Source: an uncultured Ignavibacteriales bacterium (GTDB lineage: Bacteria; Zixibacteria; MSB-5A5; GN15; JAAZOE01). Taken from it: a stretch of DNA of 64,000 nucleotides. The position numbers and the translations under genes were made by a program. Under the pieces are notes generated by a model that had not been told where the DNA came from, made no database searches, and saw only the letters and a program-made list of their open reading frames with translations. Location: assembly GCA_964611355.1 (NCBI GenBank), contig CAZSYD010000001.1, positions 2,745-66,744 on the forward strand, written 5' to 3'. Shown here piece after piece: positions 8,864-14,320 of this stretch. Numbering within the stretch: the first letter of the stretch is position 1; each line of letters opens with the position of its first letter.

Positions 8864-8874
8864 TCGGGTTTCTC
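8864..8874. repeat. Left copy of exact 11-bp direct repeat TCGGGTTTCTC bracketing the AT-rich cassette
   Basis: The identical 11-mer occurs at 12478-12488 in the same orientation. This copy lies between the rsmA stop (8826) and the radical SAM stop (8890). Confidence 0.5.
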
Positions 8875-8889
8875 ATTCGTTGCGCTTCA

Positions 8890-10113
8890 TTAGTCATTTT
8901 TAAGTATAGGAGACCATGCATCAGGCAACGTTTTCTTGGCCTTCTCGAAGGGCGTGTGGCGCAGTCTATATGACGATTGTTGATCGATTATTTTACGTAC
9001 TAAAGTGGGGCTATAGTAGTTAAGACTTTGTCTCACGCAAATATTCTGTCTTCGTACGTTTCTTCGAAATTGCCGCATTTGAGCATCGGTCCACTTTGGG
9101 TGGATATAATAGTCACTTATCGATTGTTCCTTCATATATGGCAGATAATTGTCAAATGTCTGATTGAGCGGCCTATATCGGCAATCAGAAATTTGAACTT
9201 TCCACTCCCAGCATTTTAACCTCTTCTTTTCCATTTCTTTAAAATCTATATCATAGTTATACAGCATGAACACAAAAATACCTTTAGAACGAAACCCTGC
9301 CTTTACCAGGATATCTATCTGCCTTTTTATTGATCGCCAAGATTTGTAATTGTGATCCCAAGCTATCCTGGGATTCTTAAAGCCAGCCTGCTTTAATAGA
9401 CAAGCTATATATGGTTTTTCAAGGAGTATTCTACCATCAAATCCCGACTGGCTTTCACATATCGGGTGGCCATTCTTTCCTCGAATTTCTATTATTTCTT
9501 CGAGTATGTTTTCAATAAAAGGATTTGCTAAGAGATTGTTATCATAGAATATAATCCTCGATGCGCAAATTTCGGTCCTAATGCTTTTCTTATAGGTAAT
9601 TTCCGGTTCGATGCGCCATACTCCACAAAAGCGGCATTTTCTGAAGCATCCCCTTGAGGTATGTATAATTTGGTAATCTATGGGATGAGGATTTTCAAGA
9701 ATGTTATAGTTTAAATGATGTTTAGAGGCATATTCTTCGGCTTGCTTATGGGTACCGATAAAAACTTCGTCACAGCCAGTGTAGTCTTTGCAGTGTTGTG
9801 GCATTAAAGAAGCATATACTCCACCCACAATGATCTTTGCATGCGGGAAAATTTTTTTGTAATGCTGAACACTCTCCTTGACATGCCGAGACCAATACGT
9901 GAATAATGATGTCACCATCACCAAGTCAGGGTTGTATCTGGTTCCCAATAACCTTCTTTCCTTGTTCCCTCTGGCTAGTTTTGTAATATGGCCAATGCTT
10001 CTATAATAGTCATGGAGTTTAAGCAAACCAATAGGAAGAAAGTTCTTGTGATTCCTACTCTTCAGAGGTACAGGAAAATTGGGTTCAATCAAGAGGATAT
10101 TCATTCTGAGCAC
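8890..10113 (-). CDS. Radical SAM enzyme with B12-binding-like N-terminal domain
   Basis: CX3CX2C motif CFRKCRFC at 9625-9648 (residues C156, C160, C163). N-terminal Rossmann-like pattern ILLIEPNFP...LPIGLLKL...DLVMVTS...IIVGG. The track start is GTG at 10113, directly after the upstream TAA; an ATG at 10104 is an alternative. Confidence 0.8.
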   Translation of the reverse strand: MLRMNILLIEPNFPVPLKSRNHKNFLPIGLLKLHDYYRSIGHITKLARGNKERRLLGTRYNPDLVMVTSLFTYWSRHVKESVQHYKKIFPHAKIIVGGVYASLMPQHCKDYTGCDEVFIGTHKQAEEYASKHHLNYNILENPHPIDYQIIHTSRGCFRKCRFCGVWRIEPEITYKKSIRTEICASRIIFYDNNLLANPFIENILEEIIEIRGKNGHPICESQSGFDGRILLEKPYIACLLKQAGFKNPRIAWDHNYKSWRSIKRQIDILVKAGFRSKGIFVFMLYNYDIDFKEMEKKRLKCWEWKVQISDCRYRPLNQTFDNYLPYMKEQSISDYYIHPKWTDAQMRQFRRNVRRQNICVRQSLNYYSPTLVRKIIDQQSSYRLRHTPFEKAKKTLPDAWSPILKND

Positions 10114-11961
10114 TTATGCATGTGGGTTTAAGTCAGGCGCACCAATGCAGTTGGATAGCCACAAAAGTCCAGCGGTTCCATCAAGAATATCTTGATCATC
10201 ACATTGTCTTATATGGCTTGTAGGGTCTCTTAACACCTTTATTTGGCTGACGCGATACTCAAAATTGCCTTTAATCTTGAAGATTGGCTCAAAGATTTCA
10301 TCCCAATTATTGCCGTAGTTAACTACACTTATTAATTCTCCAAGTCCAAGGAATTCGAATTTTTTCGCGTTCAGATCGATTTGCCTTTCTTCTAAACGCG
10401 GCTTGTTTCTGGTTTCCTTTATCCACATATCGTCCGCATCCTTTTTAGGGCCTCCAGGCACTCCCTGCTTCCACCATTTTTCGCTGCCGTAATGGCTCTT
10501 TAGCTTGTCCAAGATGAATTCGCGCAAGATACCTTCCGCAAGCCGTGCTTTATCCTCTAAGCTGGATATAAGAGGCGGTTTATCAGATGGCACTACATCC
10601 GGCAGCCCACCCATCCGTGCAGGAGAATAATTTGTCACAGATCGTTGAATCACTTGACCTATACGTGCTGCATTTTCACTCTGCGGGCCACGGCCCGTTT
10701 TGCTGCGAATATCTTTTTGCATATTTTCATTGATTTTGAGGTGTTCTATTACCGGCTTTAGAAACGTATCGCGGACTTCTCGCCTGAAATCTTGATTCCT
10801 GCCTGATTTTAGAAGCGATTCTTGTTTCGTATTAATGAAGTAGTTTAATATATCCTGGAATACCATGATAAATACTCCAAACCCATTGTTGCTAATTAAA
10901 ACGCTGCCCTTTCCTTTATTCCAATCTTCTGGCCAAAGCTCTTTTAATATTTCGTAATAGCTACCGATAATCCTCGCCGCATTATCAGGGGTTCTGGTTT
11001 CATCAGACGGATGCTTCAAATACTTCCATTGTGCATATTTCTCTATGGTGGAACAGACTGTTGTAAGACTGAGTTTGGCAGCGCCTATTGCAGGCATACT
11101 CGGTATATCAATATATTCACTCAAAGGCCCGGATTCTCTTAGCCGTTTGGCGGTTTCTGCAATTTGATACTGCAATCTCTGTTTATCGTCTGTGCTGTCG
11201 CGATAAATATCAGAATATAGGTCCCATAGTAAATTCCTAGGGACTGAGGTTTGCTTTTCGTTTATCTCTTTGAAGAGATTTGCCTGTTCCAAGGTTTCAA
11301 GGTTATCAAAAGCCAATACTGGCACCAGCATGTCTTCTTTCTTCGCCTTAGCGGCTCCGTAGAGCCTATGTTGTCCGTCAATTATCCAAGCTGATCCATA
11401 GTATTGAGGTAACGAAATCGTGCCAATTGATACATCATTTTCATAATGTTCCATTTTGTCCCATTTTATTGGCCTTGAAAAGTTAACTATTATGCTATTT
11501 GGGAAATAGCCGTCCTGCTCGTCAATAAAACGTCCTATTTCTTTTAACTTGGCGTTTCTAAGCATCCGTTGATAAACTTGAGATGCGGCTACAATTCCTG
11601 TAAGGTCACGGTGATGAACGTACGCATAGTCCAATAGCTTTTTGGCTGGGATCATGAAAGTGTAAAATGTTTGGCCCCCGATTTTGCCCCTAATGGCCGG
11701 ATACTTTAGCCCCAACTTCTTTTGTCTAATATCCTTAAAGATTACAGAATATAACTGACACTTGGCCGCAGGACCAACCTGCTTGACAAGTTTCTCGATG
11801 TATTCAATTTCGTTGGATGACCACAGAAAAAGCCGCCTGAACCCCCTCTTTCTCACATGATCAACATATTCTTGGTCTACAGGTCTCTTTTCGCGGGAGC
11901 TAATCGCAATTACAATGTTTATTTGCCCACAATTAATTCCATACTTGTCTTCAATTTCCAT
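10114..11961 (-). CDS. DGQHR-domain (DndB/ParB-Srx-like) protein fused to a C-terminal Swt1-type HEPN domain
   Basis: Literal DGQHR motif at 11365-11379 (WIIDGQHRLYG). The C-terminal roughly 145 aa read LREFILDKLKSHYGSEKWWKQGVP...VLRDPTSHIRQ, with Rx4H at 10213-10230. Confidence 0.8.
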   Translation of the reverse strand: MEIEDKYGINCGQINIVIAISSREKRPVDQEYVDHVRKRGFRRLFLWSSNEIEYIEKLVKQVGPAAKCQLYSVIFKDIRQKKLGLKYPAIRGKIGGQTFYTFMIPAKKLLDYAYVHHRDLTGIVAASQVYQRMLRNAKLKEIGRFIDEQDGYFPNSIIVNFSRPIKWDKMEHYENDVSIGTISLPQYYGSAWIIDGQHRLYGAAKAKKEDMLVPVLAFDNLETLEQANLFKEINEKQTSVPRNLLWDLYSDIYRDSTDDKQRLQYQIAETAKRLRESGPLSEYIDIPSMPAIGAAKLSLTTVCSTIEKYAQWKYLKHPSDETRTPDNAARIIGSYYEILKELWPEDWNKGKGSVLISNNGFGVFIMVFQDILNYFINTKQESLLKSGRNQDFRREVRDTFLKPVIEHLKINENMQKDIRSKTGRGPQSENAARIGQVIQRSVTNYSPARMGGLPDVVPSDKPPLISSLEDKARLAEGILREFILDKLKSHYGSEKWWKQGVPGGPKKDADDMWIKETRNKPRLEERQIDLNAKKFEFLGLGELISVVNYGNNWDEIFEPIFKIKGNFEYRVSQIKVLRDPTSHIRQCDDQDILDGTAGLLWLSNCIGAPDLNPHA

Positions 11962-11988
11962 TTTAATTTACAAACGCTTTCAAAAATA

Positions 11989-12390
11989 TTACTCCAACTT
12001 GTTTTTATCATTAATCGGTCCGTCCAATTTGGAACTTTGGCAATCAATAATAAAGATATTATCGCCTTCTCTGGCAAAAACGTCAATCTGCTTTGAATAA
12101 GTATTAAACCCTAATTTGAATCGTTTACTTTCCTTGTTCATACAAGGAAATCCAAGCTTGTAGAAAATCATCCAAACACGATCTTCAAATAACTCAGCTT
12201 CTGTCTTTTCCTTCCTTATTTTGATTCTAGTCTTAAGCCTAGGCCCTTTTTTCTCTTCCCAACCTTTTTCCATGTGGTTTGTTAGTTGATCTTGCGGCAC
12301 GGATTTCTCTCGGTACAGCTTAATCCTCTTGGAAGCGGCTTTTCTCAGCTCCTTATTATTAGTACAGAGTTCACCTTCGATTCCACGCAT
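11989..12390 (-). CDS. Small basic protein with restriction-endonuclease-like (PD-(D/E)xK-type) strand pattern
   Basis: Strong SD (aaggaggg) before the ATG. FEDRVWMIFYKLGF...QIDVFAREGDNIFIIDCQSSK resembles the helix, D-strand and (D/E/Q)xK-strand of Mrr/NucS-like folds. The expected ExK position reads DCQ. Confidence 0.5.
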   Translation of the reverse strand: MRGIEGELCTNNKELRKAASKRIKLYREKSVPQDQLTNHMEKGWEEKKGPRLKTRIKIRKEKTEAELFEDRVWMIFYKLGFPCMNKESKRFKLGFNTYSKQIDVFAREGDNIFIIDCQSSKLDGPINDKNKLE

Positions 12391-12427
12391 TAAGTCCCTC
12401 CTTTTGAAAAACTAACAATACTATAGG

Positions 12428-12456
12428 ATTATAATTCTACTCCTTTTCAGTAGCAA
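12428..12456 (-). promoter_or_regulatory. Sigma70-type promoter of the cassette operon
   Basis: On the minus strand: TTGCTA (12456-12451), a 17-nt spacer, then a perfect TATAAT (12433-12428). It lies about 38 nt upstream of the ATG at 12390. Confidence 0.5.
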
Positions 12457-12477
12457 GCCAAATTTGTAATCTATATT

Positions 12478-12488
12478 TCGGGTTTCTC
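12478..12488. repeat. Right copy of exact 11-bp direct repeat TCGGGTTTCTC
   Basis: Identical to 8864-8874. It lies between the cassette promoter and the nfu stop (12579). Confidence 0.5.
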
Positions 12489-12578
12489 TCCGCCTGTGGC
12501 GGATCAGAACGCCGACCTGCATTATAAACCCCATATATGTTCGTAGAGACGGTTTGCGAACCGCCCGTACGATTGATA

Positions 12579-13184
12579 TTACTCGCCCGGGGCCTGGAAG
12601 TACGGGTTCTGTCCGGAGGCGTGATCGGTAACATCTACGATTTCGGTTATCTCCGGTGCCCGCGAACGAAGAATCTGTTCGATACCGTATTTCAGGGTGT
12701 GGGCCGCCGAAGCGCAGCCCTGGCAGCCGCCCCTCATCGTCAGATAAACGGTCGTTTCCTGGAGATCAACCAGTTCGACACTGCCGCCGTGAGCGGCGAT
12801 GCCGGGATTTATTTCCTCGTCGAATACCTTCCGTATCTTTTCGCGCAGTTTTTCGTCGATGGCCGGTTTTTTATTTTTGATTTCAGAAGATATCAAATTG
12901 CCGCCCGCCGATATTTTTTCGCGCATTACCGCGCCTATTTTTTTGCCGATATCCTGCCACCGGTCGTCGGTTGATTTCATCACGGTGACGATATTACCGG
13001 CAACCATTACCTTGCTGACACCGGCAACTTCAAACAGAGCCTCCAGAAGCGGCGAACCTTCGGCCATCTCCCGGCTGGTGCATTTGACCACCCCATCGTA
13101 GAGTTCGTAATCGGTTCGAAACCGGCAGACGTCCGGATCTATTTGCAGTTCGGCGGTAATATTTATGGTACCGGCGTCCTTCAT
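12579..13184 (-). CDS. Nfu/NifU-family Fe-S cluster assembly protein
   Basis: C-terminal NifU-type motif GGSVELVDL...TMRGGCQGCASAAHTLKYGIEQIL, and an N-terminal Nfu_N-like segment (LFEVAGVSKVMVAGNIVTVMK). Confidence 0.85.
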   Translation of the reverse strand: MKDAGTINITAELQIDPDVCRFRTDYELYDGVVKCTSREMAEGSPLLEALFEVAGVSKVMVAGNIVTVMKSTDDRWQDIGKKIGAVMREKISAGGNLISSEIKNKKPAIDEKLREKIRKVFDEEINPGIAAHGGSVELVDLQETTVYLTMRGGCQGCASAAHTLKYGIEQILRSRAPEITEIVDVTDHASGQNPYFQAPGE

Positions 13185-13204
13185 CGTCAGGCGTCTCCCA
13201 TATT

Positions 13205-14320
13205 CTATACGTTAAACGACTGCCGGGAAGAGTCGCTTTTTTTGCGATTCAATTCCCTGAGCTTGTTAAAATCGTATATGCCGGTGTCGTGTCCGTCGGA
13301 GAAGCTGATTGAGATTGCATAGCGGCCGACCTTCTCAAAGGCTTTGATCTTAATATCGAGCGGCACTTCTCCGGTAGCGGCGCCGGGAACGGGAGCACTA
13401 ATCCGCAAATCGTAGGGAGTATATTCCTCGACGGCGCCGTCCGGCCATTCGATAGTAAGATTTCCTTCTTCCGATAATTTGATATCTTTTGGTTCATCGA
13501 CGCTCAGAACGCCCTCTTTAATTGTGCTCTTGAAACGTTCGGCTATTTCAAGAAAAGCTTTAACCGAAGGCGAATCGGTTTTTTGGACCATCAGCGGCGT
13601 ACCCTCGTCGCTACTGGTCATCAATTCCGGGTCAATCGGAATACTGCCTAAAAAGTTCACGCCAAACTTCTCGGCCATTTTCGCGCCGCCGCCGGTTTTG
13701 AAAATCGCCGTATGCGTCCCGCAATTGGGACAGGTAAAGCCGCTCATATTTTCAATAATGCCCACGATCGGGACATTGACATGATCGAACATCCGGAGAC
13801 CCTTCTCAGCCACCCCCAGCGCCACCTGCTGTGGAGTGGTAACGATAATTGCGCCGCTGAGGTGCGCCTGCTGCGCCAGAGTAATCTGTACGTCGCCCGA
13901 TCCGGGGGGCAGATCGACTATCAAATAATCCAGGTCGCCCCACAGAACATTTCCGAGAAACTGTTGAATCAGTTTGGAAGCCATCGGACCGCGCCATATA
14001 ACCGGTTGTCCTTCCGCCAATAATAACCCGATCGACATAAAAGTCAGGCCGTGCCTTTTAAGCGGTATCAGGTAATCACCCTGCGTCTCGGGTTGCTTCC
14101 CGATTGCGCCCAGCATAGCCGGTTGGCTGGGCCCGTACACGTCGGCGTCCATCAGACCGACCCTGGCGCCCGATTTATTAAGCGCTATCGCGAAATTGGT
14201 TGAAACGGTTGACTTGCCGACGCCGCCCTTGCCGCTGGCGATGGCGATGATGTGTTGAATTCCGGCCAGCCCCGCCGGCTTTTCCTGATGAGCCGGACGA
14301 TTTGCTTTATTTTCTGCCAT
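13205..14320 (-). CDS. apbC: Mrp/ApbC Fe-S cluster carrier ATPase with C-terminal DUF971-like domain
   Basis: P-loop GKGGVGKST and CPNCG cluster-binding motif. The C-terminal LTIEWPDG...ISISFSDGHDTGIYDFNKLREL resembles DUF971. Confidence 0.88.
   Translation of the reverse strand: MAENKANRPAHQEKPAGLAGIQHIIAIASGKGGVGKSTVSTNFAIALNKSGARVGLMDADVYGPSQPAMLGAIGKQPETQGDYLIPLKRHGLTFMSIGLLLAEGQPVIWRGPMASKLIQQFLGNVLWGDLDYLIVDLPPGSGDVQITLAQQAHLSGAIIVTTPQQVALGVAEKGLRMFDHVNVPIVGIIENMSGFTCPNCGTHTAIFKTGGGAKMAEKFGVNFLGSIPIDPELMTSSDEGTPLMVQKTDSPSVKAFLEIAERFKSTIKEGVLSVDEPKDIKLSEEGNLTIEWPDGAVEEYTPYDLRISAPVPGAATGEVPLDIKIKAFEKVGRYAISISFSDGHDTGIYDFNKLRELNRKKSDSSRQSFNV

Follow-up and report, generated by a model that had tools for sequence, protein, structure and literature searches.

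A predicted restriction-modification-like gene pair that joins a DGQHR–HEPN protein to a B12-domain radical SAM enzyme

We analyzed a 64,000-nucleotide stretch (hereafter, the window) of contig CAZSYD010000001.1 from an uncultured Ignavibacteriales bacterium, focusing on the AT-rich cassette at positions 8864–12488. As the initial annotation had reported, the cassette carries three co-directional open reading frames (ORFs) on the minus strand, with gaps of 27 nt between ORF1 and ORF2 and of 0–9 nt between ORF2 and ORF3. Judged by alignment with their homologues, the three ORFs correspond to only two genes: ORF1 is the N-terminal part, now detached, of a protein of about 748 aa (hereafter, the big protein) that joins a restriction-endonuclease (REase)-like, a DGQHR and a HEPN domain, and ORF3 encodes a radical S-adenosylmethionine (SAM) enzyme with a B12-binding-like domain. 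The interpretation that we favor, with confidence evenly balanced, is that the cassette would be a restriction-modification (R-M)-like two-gene module in which the radical SAM enzyme marks host DNA and the big protein acts as the effector. The strongest argument for this interpretation is functional equivalence by displacement, in that the radical SAM enzyme occupies the slot of four classes of DNA methyltransferase. The genes and domains of the cassette are as follows.

ORF1, 12390..11989, minus strand: 133 aa, N-terminal part of the ancestral big gene
ORF2, 11961..10114, minus strand: 615 aa, C-terminal part of the ancestral big gene
DGQHR domain of ORF2, approximately 10849–11697, minus strand: TIGR03187, PF14072
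HEPN domain of ORF2, approximately 10186–10530, minus strand: HEPN_Swt1, Rx4H
ORF3, the radical SAM gene, 10113..8890, minus strand: 407 aa from the GTG at 10113, or 404 aa from the ATG at 10104
Radical SAM protein, 8890..10104, minus strand: 404 aa, B12-binding-domain radical SAM, predicted DNA-modifying ('M') component

Homologues of ORF2 are mostly single genes of about 750 aa, and ORF1 aligns with residues 1–130 of two of them, P0004 (51% identity, E = 8e-39) and P0015 (47%, E = 5e-36). In about 78 of 82 related loci, the region equivalent to ORF1 and the remainder form a single gene. ORF1 and ORF2 share one frame, and the sequence separating them aligns collinearly with the homologues, stop codons replacing their E, G and D residues. 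A sibling sequence, L172, an independent metagenome contig of 1589 bp that is 98.9% identical to window positions 13474..11886, carries the same nfu gene, ORF1 and right-hand copy of a direct repeat described below. At the ORF1–ORF2 junction, L172 has an open frame (...LEEYVGKRGDIKRAIEAKYGRNCGPINIV...), and because this agrees with the family consensus, we take L172 to show the ancestral state. Since ORF1 and ORF2 are collinear with single-gene homologues and the sibling frame is open, they represent one ancestral gene; on the same grounds, the separate small PD-(D/E)xK-like nuclease that had been read from ORF1 was ruled out.

We counted 412 relatives of the big protein among species-representative genomes, spread over Bacteria, the Candidate Phyla Radiation (CPR), Archaea and DPANN. 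The radical SAM gene lies directly downstream, 9 nt past the big-gene stop, in loci L001–L005, L007 (where the cassette copy is fragmented) and L191–L193, and the identity ranks of the two proteins are congruent (79/63/58/56/52% for the radical SAM protein and 64/56/55/55/44% for the big protein). The synteny anticipated by the initial annotation is in this way borne out in other genomes. Directly downstream of the cassette of the nearest relative, a HepT-like/MNT toxin-antitoxin pair was also observed (L191:3359–3986). To survey the neighborhood more broadly, we clustered the adjacent ORFs over 81 related loci and counted candidate modifiers within three genes of the big protein, with the following result.

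B12-type radical SAM: 31 of 81 loci
D12 Dam methyltransferase: 21 of 81 loci (PF02086, E = 4e-47)
MT-A70 methyltransferase: 5 of 81 loci (E = 5e-29)
N6_N4 methyltransferase: 5 of 81 loci (E = 6e-27)

At least one candidate modifier was present in 58 of the 81 loci, and this is a lower bound, because tblastn shows further radical SAM genes in some of the loci scored as having none. The partner radical SAM protein occurs in two forms. The short form (about 406 aa) lies directly downstream with the 9-nt spacer in the window and its closest relatives, and the long form (about 545 aa) is encoded together with a GHKL ATPase, often alongside an additional small DGQHR protein and a PIN_8 protein. Two cultured alphaproteobacterial plasmids (L204, NC_009426.1 pNL1 118850–125348; L205, NZ_CP072139.1) carry an extended version in which a big DGQHR protein and a small one (about 335 aa) are combined with a radical SAM protein of the long form (about 540 aa) and a GHKL ATPase; a PIN-like protein and a further ATPase may or may not be present. 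A tblastn search with P0004 likewise recovered the DGQHR protein encoded on pNL1 in Novosphingobium aromaticivorans (coverage 84%, E about 1e-66), whose neighborhood contains small DGQHR, radical SAM and ATPase genes in that order.

The radical SAM family extends beyond this pairing. Homologues at 57–63% identity form the terminal gene of at least four other helicase/nuclease operon types, listed here by gene content.

DEAD/ResIII helicase, SMC-like AAA_23 protein, dnd_assoc_4 protein and radical SAM: Koleobacter methoxysyntrophicus and others
SNF2 helicase of about 485 aa, three unknown proteins and radical SAM
GHKL ATPase, 1436-aa SNF2 protein and radical SAM
NurA-like protein, HerA/CedB-like protein and radical SAM: Thermoplasmatota; also Marinitoga camini virus 1

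In two loci of the first type, a second, unrelated PF04055 radical SAM gene (301–344 aa) lies within about 5 kb (L194:12076–12981 and L203:13212–14246). One SNF2-type operon (L201:9581–13825) adjoins AbiTii and a Gabija-like pair of an OLD-TOPRIM ATPase and a UvrD helicase, a defense-island context. The fourth type was seen both in a Thermoplasmatota metagenome-assembled genome (L196) and in Marinitoga camini virus 1, a temperate Thermotogae virus in which the radical SAM relative stands beside HerA and a NurA-like nuclease (L206, KP836355.1 37383–41209).

On viral contigs, relatives of the radical SAM protein occupy at least 256 loci and are mostly solitary; three viral copies at 41–50% identity lie away from any big-protein gene, which was itself found on only nine viral contigs, mostly beside Dam. 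Other copies of the radical SAM family are located on plasmids and on prophage-like contigs with integrases. The family comprises 165, 1019 and 3082 clusters at 50% identity for E <= 1e-30, 1e-10 and 1e-3, respectively. Two members are fused to DNA methyltransferases: P0380 (777 aa) joins a full C5-cytosine DNA methyltransferase to the radical SAM protein (PF00145, E = 5e-57; hhalign probability 99.9%), and P0378 (584 aa) joins it to the C-terminal part of such an enzyme (PF00145, E = 9e-17). These fusions hint at 5-methylcytosine or its surroundings as a possible substrate of the radical SAM enzyme. Another family member, P0355 (797 aa), contains an intein with a LAGLIDADG-like domain within the radical SAM core.

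The assignment of ORF3 as a radical SAM enzyme with a B12-binding-like N-domain, made in the initial annotation, was upheld. Homologue alignments and the 100% identical sibling protein (P0241) indicate that translation likely starts at the ATG at 10104, and the NCBI call (P0121, 352 aa) begins 52 codons too late. The protein scored above the cut-off of the B12-binding profile PF02310 (E = 2.6e-9, 37.4 bits; cut-off 32.1), and its CX3CX2C motif (C156/C160/C163) is invariant in 28 of 28 sequences. In the AlphaFold model (mean pLDDT, the predicted local distance difference test score, of 85), the best Foldseek neighbors were TsrM (6wte, E = 5e-12, TM about 0.56), CysS and TokK, which would make cobalamin-dependent radical SAM methylases the nearest structural relatives; AprD4, MtaB and MoaA were also among the fold matches, as were corrinoid proteins. 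The CX3CX2C motif and the modeled fold together place ORF3 in the radical SAM superfamily. Three C-terminal cysteines, C301, C311 and C359, are also invariant and hint at an auxiliary metal site. Profile searches of the PDB returned no sequence relatives of either the radical SAM or the big protein, even at E <= 1.

The DGQHR domain of ORF2 was recovered as annotated, with TIGR03187 (E = 5e-45, 154.3 bits; cut-off 58.85) and PF14072 (E = 7e-16, 58.7 bits; cut-off 29.1). The DGQHR pentapeptide corresponds to ORF2 residues 195–199 and is invariant, together with F366/N370, in 25 of 25 family sequences. With a profile score above the curated cut-off and the motifs present, ORF2 belongs to the DGQHR domain superfamily. 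Its closest subfamily is DpdB (PADLOC E = 1.6e-27; NCBIfam E = 3.4e-25), at scores far under the equivalog cut-offs of DpdB, DndB and DGQHR_dnd_1. The Swt1-type HEPN domain with Rx4H also withstood examination: the motif is R578/H583 of ORF2, equivalent to R714/H719 in the family, where it is invariant in 25 of 25 sequences. Residues 600–745 are all-helical in the full-length model, and the motif and this model together identify the C-terminus as a Swt1-like HEPN domain.

The N-terminal region forms an alpha/beta domain in the full-length models. Foldseek with the full-length model returned PD-(D/E)xK nucleases only, as weak matches (best E = 5.6e-3; 1y88 at a root-mean-square deviation of 2.6 Å over 116 residues); this whole-protein search gave no match for the DGQHR or HEPN parts, and the N-terminal domain has no Pfam match. 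Residues of the nuclease-like motif are conserved to different degrees, namely E67 in 25 of 25, D100 in 24, E113 in 19, C114 in 25 and K115 in 17 sequences. Within the 'ECK' motif of P0004, it is the cysteine (C114) that is invariant, the flanking E and K being variable. Window ORF1 reads 'IDCQ' where the family consensus is 'VECK', and the D-C-Q variant occurs elsewhere in the family.

In the model that we favor, the first gene (ancestrally about 748 aa) would encode a three-domain effector or reader, with a putative restriction-endonuclease-fold domain at the N-terminus, a DGQHR (ParB/Srx, DndB/DpdB-like) DNA-handling domain of nucleoside triphosphatase (NTPase) type in the center, and a predicted Swt1-type HEPN RNase with the invariant Rx4H at the C-terminus. 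The second gene, which starts 9 nt past the stop of the first, would encode a cobalamin-binding-domain radical SAM enzyme whose presumed substrate is the host's own DNA. The covalent mark would most plausibly arise by radical methylation or alkylation, and the enzyme would fill the role of the Dam, MT-A70 or N4/N6 methyltransferases in sister modules. As to the direction of discrimination, the big protein would attack unmarked (foreign) nucleic acid, cutting DNA through the REase and/or ParB-like domain. The predicted defense phenotype would include the HEPN RNase as a second effector of the abortive-infection type. We assign the radical SAM enzyme to the 'M' half because it shares a slot with DNA methyltransferases, recurs in several modules, is fused to methyltransferases and occurs as solo phage copies. 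The modification-coupled conflict logic of the initial annotation was strengthened by the partner swapping. As assembled, the window would retain only an intact radical SAM gene, an 'orphan modifier'. For the family as a whole, we offer the tentative proposal, to which we give somewhat less than even weight, that it installs a previously unknown radical-derived DNA mark, such as the product of C-methylation or alkylation of an unactivated carbon or an elaborated 5-methylcytosine, and acts as an exchangeable modifier for five or more kinds of restriction-type module, in Bacteria and Archaea as well as in their viruses.

Several observations weigh against this model. The function we favor for every family member is drawn from comparison of sequences and structures, and 23 of the 81 loci have no recognized modifier. 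In this copy, two profile scores fall under their cut-offs, PF18731 (HEPN_Swt1) for ORF2 (20.4 bits, E = 6.6e-4; cut-off 27.5) and PF04055 for the radical SAM protein (19.4 bits, E = 1.3e-3; cut-off 29.5); both matches are precomputed on many homologues of the respective proteins. The structural neighbors of the radical SAM protein include non-methylase B12-like radical SAM enzymes (the dehydratase AprD4, and MtaB), so that its chemistry is a model-based prediction, and no DNA-binding domain is recognizable in the protein itself. Given that the nuclease-like ExK is not strictly kept (K in 17 of 25), the N-terminal domain may be a reader rather than a nuclease. The big protein could also stand on the modification side, since the DGQHR protein of the Dpd system aids modification and not restriction. 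Finally, the window copy is uninformative on activity because its first gene is broken, and the window is not a defense island, because the flanks of the cassette are housekeeping genes.

The comparison with Dpd leads to an alternative that we consider unlikely, in which labor would be divided as in that system: the DGQHR domain would be an ATPase that helps the radical SAM enzyme to modify DNA, with the REase-like and HEPN domains directed at unmodified targets. One protein would then serve as cofactor of modification and as effector alike, and in Alphaproteobacteria the helper may be the separate small DGQHR protein. Such a division is suggested by the DpdB subfamily match in both PADLOC and NCBIfam and by the long-radical-SAM subtype, in which the extra small DGQHR protein lies directly upstream of the radical SAM gene. 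However, Dam, MT-A70 and N4/N6 methyltransferases, which require no helper, are also partners of this big protein, and the phage copies and other operon types of the radical SAM family lack any DGQHR protein. The C-terminal tail of one radical SAM protein (P0363) gave a weak match to the ParB-type profile TIGR00180 that would also fit this alternative but is suggestive only, as hhalign of the tail against the big-protein profile was not significant.

Radical SAM chemistry on nucleotides is established in defense through the prokaryotic viperins. By analogy, the radical SAM enzyme might make or alter a small molecule or nucleotide that serves as an antiviral product or signal, or modify RNA or protein, with the product triggering or restraining the HEPN domain as an abortive-infection effector. 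The invariant HEPN Rx4H agrees with this possibility, as does the presence of AprD4 and of MtaB, a tRNA methylthiotransferase, among the structural neighbors; the invariant C301, C311 and C359 suggest an auxiliary cluster, as in enzymes of more complex chemistry. We nevertheless regard it as improbable, given that four DNA methyltransferase classes replace the radical SAM enzyme positionally, that it is covalently fused to C5-cytosine DNA methyltransferases, and that its partners are DNA helicases and nucleases. Least probable to us is that the pair plays no part in phage defense and works instead in epigenetic regulation or as a selfish, toxin-antitoxin-like addiction unit. The solitary insert between housekeeping genes, the frequent decay (the window patch, the insertion-sequence event in L191–L193 and the fragmented L007 copy) and the HepT/MNT pair of L191 would allow this, but against it stand the AbiTii and Gabija-like neighbors of the L201 operon, the copies on plasmids and integrase-bearing prophage-like contigs, and the fact that addiction and defense are not exclusive in R-M-like systems.

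Returning to the interrupted effector gene, we compared the window with the sibling contig and located nearly all of the differences in a single short patch.

Substitution patch, 11924..12008 (L172 positions 1467–1551), minus strand: 85 nt, 16 G:C to T:A changes relative to L172

On the coding strand, nine of the 16 substitutions are G to T and seven are C to A, and outside the patch the two sequences differ at only 2 of 1504 nt. The substitutions yield three in-frame stops (TAA, TGA and TAA) and also create the start codon of ORF2, an ATG that derives from AGG and has no Shine-Dalgarno (SD) sequence. Gene conversion was rejected as the cause, as 16 of 16 changes fall in one substitution class, and so was mutagenesis of the diversity-generating-retroelement (DGR) type, as the changes are at G and C rather than A and no reverse transcriptase is nearby. 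The patch reflects either a real inactivation, such as clustered guanine-lesion mutagenesis, or a read artefact of the Illumina cross-talk type. In the latter case, to which we assign only slightly less than an even chance, the organism would have an intact 748-aa gene and the split would stem from a poor read stretch at low coverage. Exchanges of A with C and of G with T are classic Illumina dye cross-talk miscalls, and here all 16 such differences lie within 85 nt, shorter than one read, with almost none in the remaining sequence. L172 itself terminates 38 nt beyond the patch, suggesting a low-coverage or hard-to-assemble spot, and the window contains no further gene-breaking AT patch, the remaining AT dips being intergenic. 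On the other hand, assemblers normally drop singleton k-mers, the patch is embedded in a 130-kb contig, and G:C to T:A changes are also a signature of guanine oxidation or depurination.

Real loss of the same gene does occur, as the nearest other relative (P0002, 64% identity) shows, whose N-terminal domain was lost through insertion of an insertion sequence (IS). In three independent assemblies, the contig ends (L191:1–122, L192:1–112 and L193:1–104) encode the C-terminus of an rve-type transposase (rve_3, E = 2.5e-4); this remnant lies 15 nt upstream of the N-terminally truncated big gene, from which the REase-like domain has been removed. The radical SAM gene is intact in both lineages with a broken big gene. 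We conclude that the effector gene of the window is probably interrupted and that the cassette as assembled is probably not a working system.

The boundaries of the cassette and its upstream signals are marked by the following features.

Direct repeat, left copy TCGGGTTTCTC, 8864..8874, no strand assigned: 11 bp, exact, at the GC-rich/AT-rich boundary
Direct repeat, right copy TCGGGTTTCTC, 12478..12488, no strand assigned: 11 bp, exact, also in sibling contig L172
Promoter-like TTGCTA-17-TATAAT, 12456..12428, minus strand: upstream of ORF1, consensus match only
SD sequence AAAGGAGGG, 12403..12395, minus strand: precedes ORF1

The G+C fraction is 0.38–0.42 across the three ORFs, compared with 0.51–0.535 in rsmA/nfu and 0.503 in the whole window (about 0.40 in the cassette against 0.52 in the flanks). 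The dip that had been noted is real, but the contrast of 32–38% with 60–63% given for it was overstated. The exact 11-bp repeat described as bracketing the block was found, and base composition flips precisely at both copies. The probability of a match of at least 11 nt between the two flanking intergenic segments was about 0.004 in a post hoc test, both by shuffling and by sampling of equivalent segment pairs across the window. The position of the repeat at the composition boundaries is compatible with an insertion junction. Of 7 related loci, 5 have an AT-biased cassette. The G+C contrast, the repeat at the boundaries and the AT bias in relatives suggest that the cassette is of foreign origin and was acquired horizontally.

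On one side, the cassette is flanked by the genes for MetG, TatD and RsmA, and on the other by those for Nfu, Mrp/NUBPL and a HisKA protein. RsmA and Nfu are the immediate flanks that the initial annotation had named, but the interruption of an rsmA–nfu junction that it proposed was not supported by an empty site. None of the metagenome contigs searched contained an exact copy of the predicted junction sequence, and an Nfu-based locus search for an empty site returned only the cassette-bearing sibling and distant relatives without rsmA downstream; the closest cassette-free relatives have mrp–nfu with no rsmA downstream. Exact-protein look-ups with P0001, Nfu and RsmA of the window gave no match, and the cassette contains no integrase or transposase. 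The annotated promoter and strong SD sequence are present before ORF1, but the region shows no enrichment for promoter-like sites in general (a count of 14 against 9.8 +/- 3.8 expected from shuffles). No match to an Rfam non-coding RNA was obtained in the cassette or the window. A functional tie to the adjoining Fe-S genes nfu/mrp was dismissed as coincidence, as the linkage occurs in no other locus.

The effector half of the module has a described counterpart. The ParB/DGQHR–HEPN fusion of the Saro_3948 type was catalogued in 2013 (Anantharaman et al., PMC3710099), and such fusions were predicted in silico to be R-M-type conflict systems (PMC3710099; Makarova et al. 2013, PMC3632139). They belong to the same family as the big protein, with ParB/DGQHR, Swt1-like HEPN and REase-like domains, but the two papers list the fusion only and describe no partner of the radical SAM type; the term 'radical SAM' has 0 occurrences in either text. 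In a full-text literature search, with subscription-only papers outside its scope, no paper was found on the pairing of a DGQHR/HEPN or restriction-type operon with a B12-type radical SAM enzyme. PADLOC-DB v2 has no family for the radical SAM protein or ORF1 and gave only domain-level matches of ORF2 to DpdB, DndB and PDC-M34B, in keeping with the earlier view that this is not a named system. The similarity to PDC-M34B (E = 4e-6) is at the domain level only, covering the 115-residue HEPN domain of a 192-position model and leaving the radical SAM protein and ORF1 unmatched.

The cassette is not a member of Dnd, Dpd or Ssp, because profile scores miss the cut-offs and the gene content differs; the absence of the partners that define the known DGQHR systems, noted at the outset, was confirmed. 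Dpd consists of DpdA/DpdB/DpdC 7-deazaguanine DNA modification and DpdD–K restriction, and its pathway includes a radical SAM step (QueE). The cassette resembles it in having a DGQHR ParB-like protein, with DpdB as the best subfamily match of ORF2, and Dpd likewise couples DNA modification of unusual chemistry to a restriction module, one that includes helicases. However, ORF2 reaches 88.7 bits against the DpdB model NF041060 (cut-off 300), the B12-domain radical SAM enzyme is unrelated to QueE, and the DGQHR domain is part of a fusion with REase-like and HEPN domains; neither DpdA/TGT nor queCDE genes adjoin the cassette in the window or recur among the 81 related loci. Dnd and Ssp share the coupling of a ParB/Srx-fold protein to a DNA modification module, one radical SAM operon type holds DndD-like AAA_23 and dnd_assoc_4 proteins, and SspE, GmrSD and BrxU similarly join a ParB-like NTPase to a nuclease domain. 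Against this, ORF2 scores 34.9 bits with the DndB model TIGR03233 (cut-off 328), no dndACDE or sspABCD genes are present, and no Dnd cluster recurs near the 81 loci. The cassette also differs from Ssp and other DUF262 proteins in its motif (DGQHR, not DGQQR) and in its nucleases (REase-like and HEPN, not HNH).

Among enzymes, the class B radical SAM methyltransferases (TsrM, TokK, CysS, Fom3 and others) share with the cassette protein the N-terminal Rossmann-type B12 domain and the TIM barrel with CX3CX2C, and cobalamin binding is predicted for it by this resemblance. Sequence identity is only 10–14%, however, and the cassette protein is shorter (about 404 aa), with a C-terminal region of its own that carries the three invariant cysteines; the substrates of known class B members are small molecules or peptides rather than DNA. 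As a compact mobile unit of modifier and nuclease effector, the cassette is similar to Type II/IV R-M systems, and its modifier is exchanged for Dam, MT-A70 and N4/N6 methyltransferases. The solo radical SAM copies on phages are likewise reminiscent of orphan phage methyltransferases, and the frequent decay of the restriction half is a further point in common with R-M systems. It departs from R-M systems in that the modifier is a radical SAM enzyme, not a methyltransferase acting by bimolecular nucleophilic substitution (SN2), and in that its effector carries two extra domains, a ParB-like NTPase and an RNase.

To our knowledge, the well-understood self-marking systems all use SN2 methyltransferases, sulfur insertion (Dnd/Ssp) or base exchange (Dpd). 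The ParB/DGQHR–HEPN fusion is already known; what would be new is a radical SAM enzyme as the modifier in modification-based discrimination of self from non-self. If this is true, it would represent new DNA chemistry in prokaryotic immunity and, through the solo viral copies, in phage counter-defense, and a new class of epigenetic self-marking chemistry. Such a mark could confound sequencing and could also serve as a new orthogonal DNA label. For annotation, the 'three genes' of the window should be read as two, and the NCBI start of the radical SAM gene as too short. The proposed function could further explain a family of more than 1000 diverged clusters at 50% identity that are annotated only as 'radical SAM protein' or 'hypothetical'. 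The family is widespread, and its cultured carriers include N. aromaticivorans DSM 12444 (pNL1), Agrobacterium and Rhizobium (plasmids), Koleobacter methoxysyntrophicus and Marinitoga camini virus 1, so that its function is testable in these hosts.

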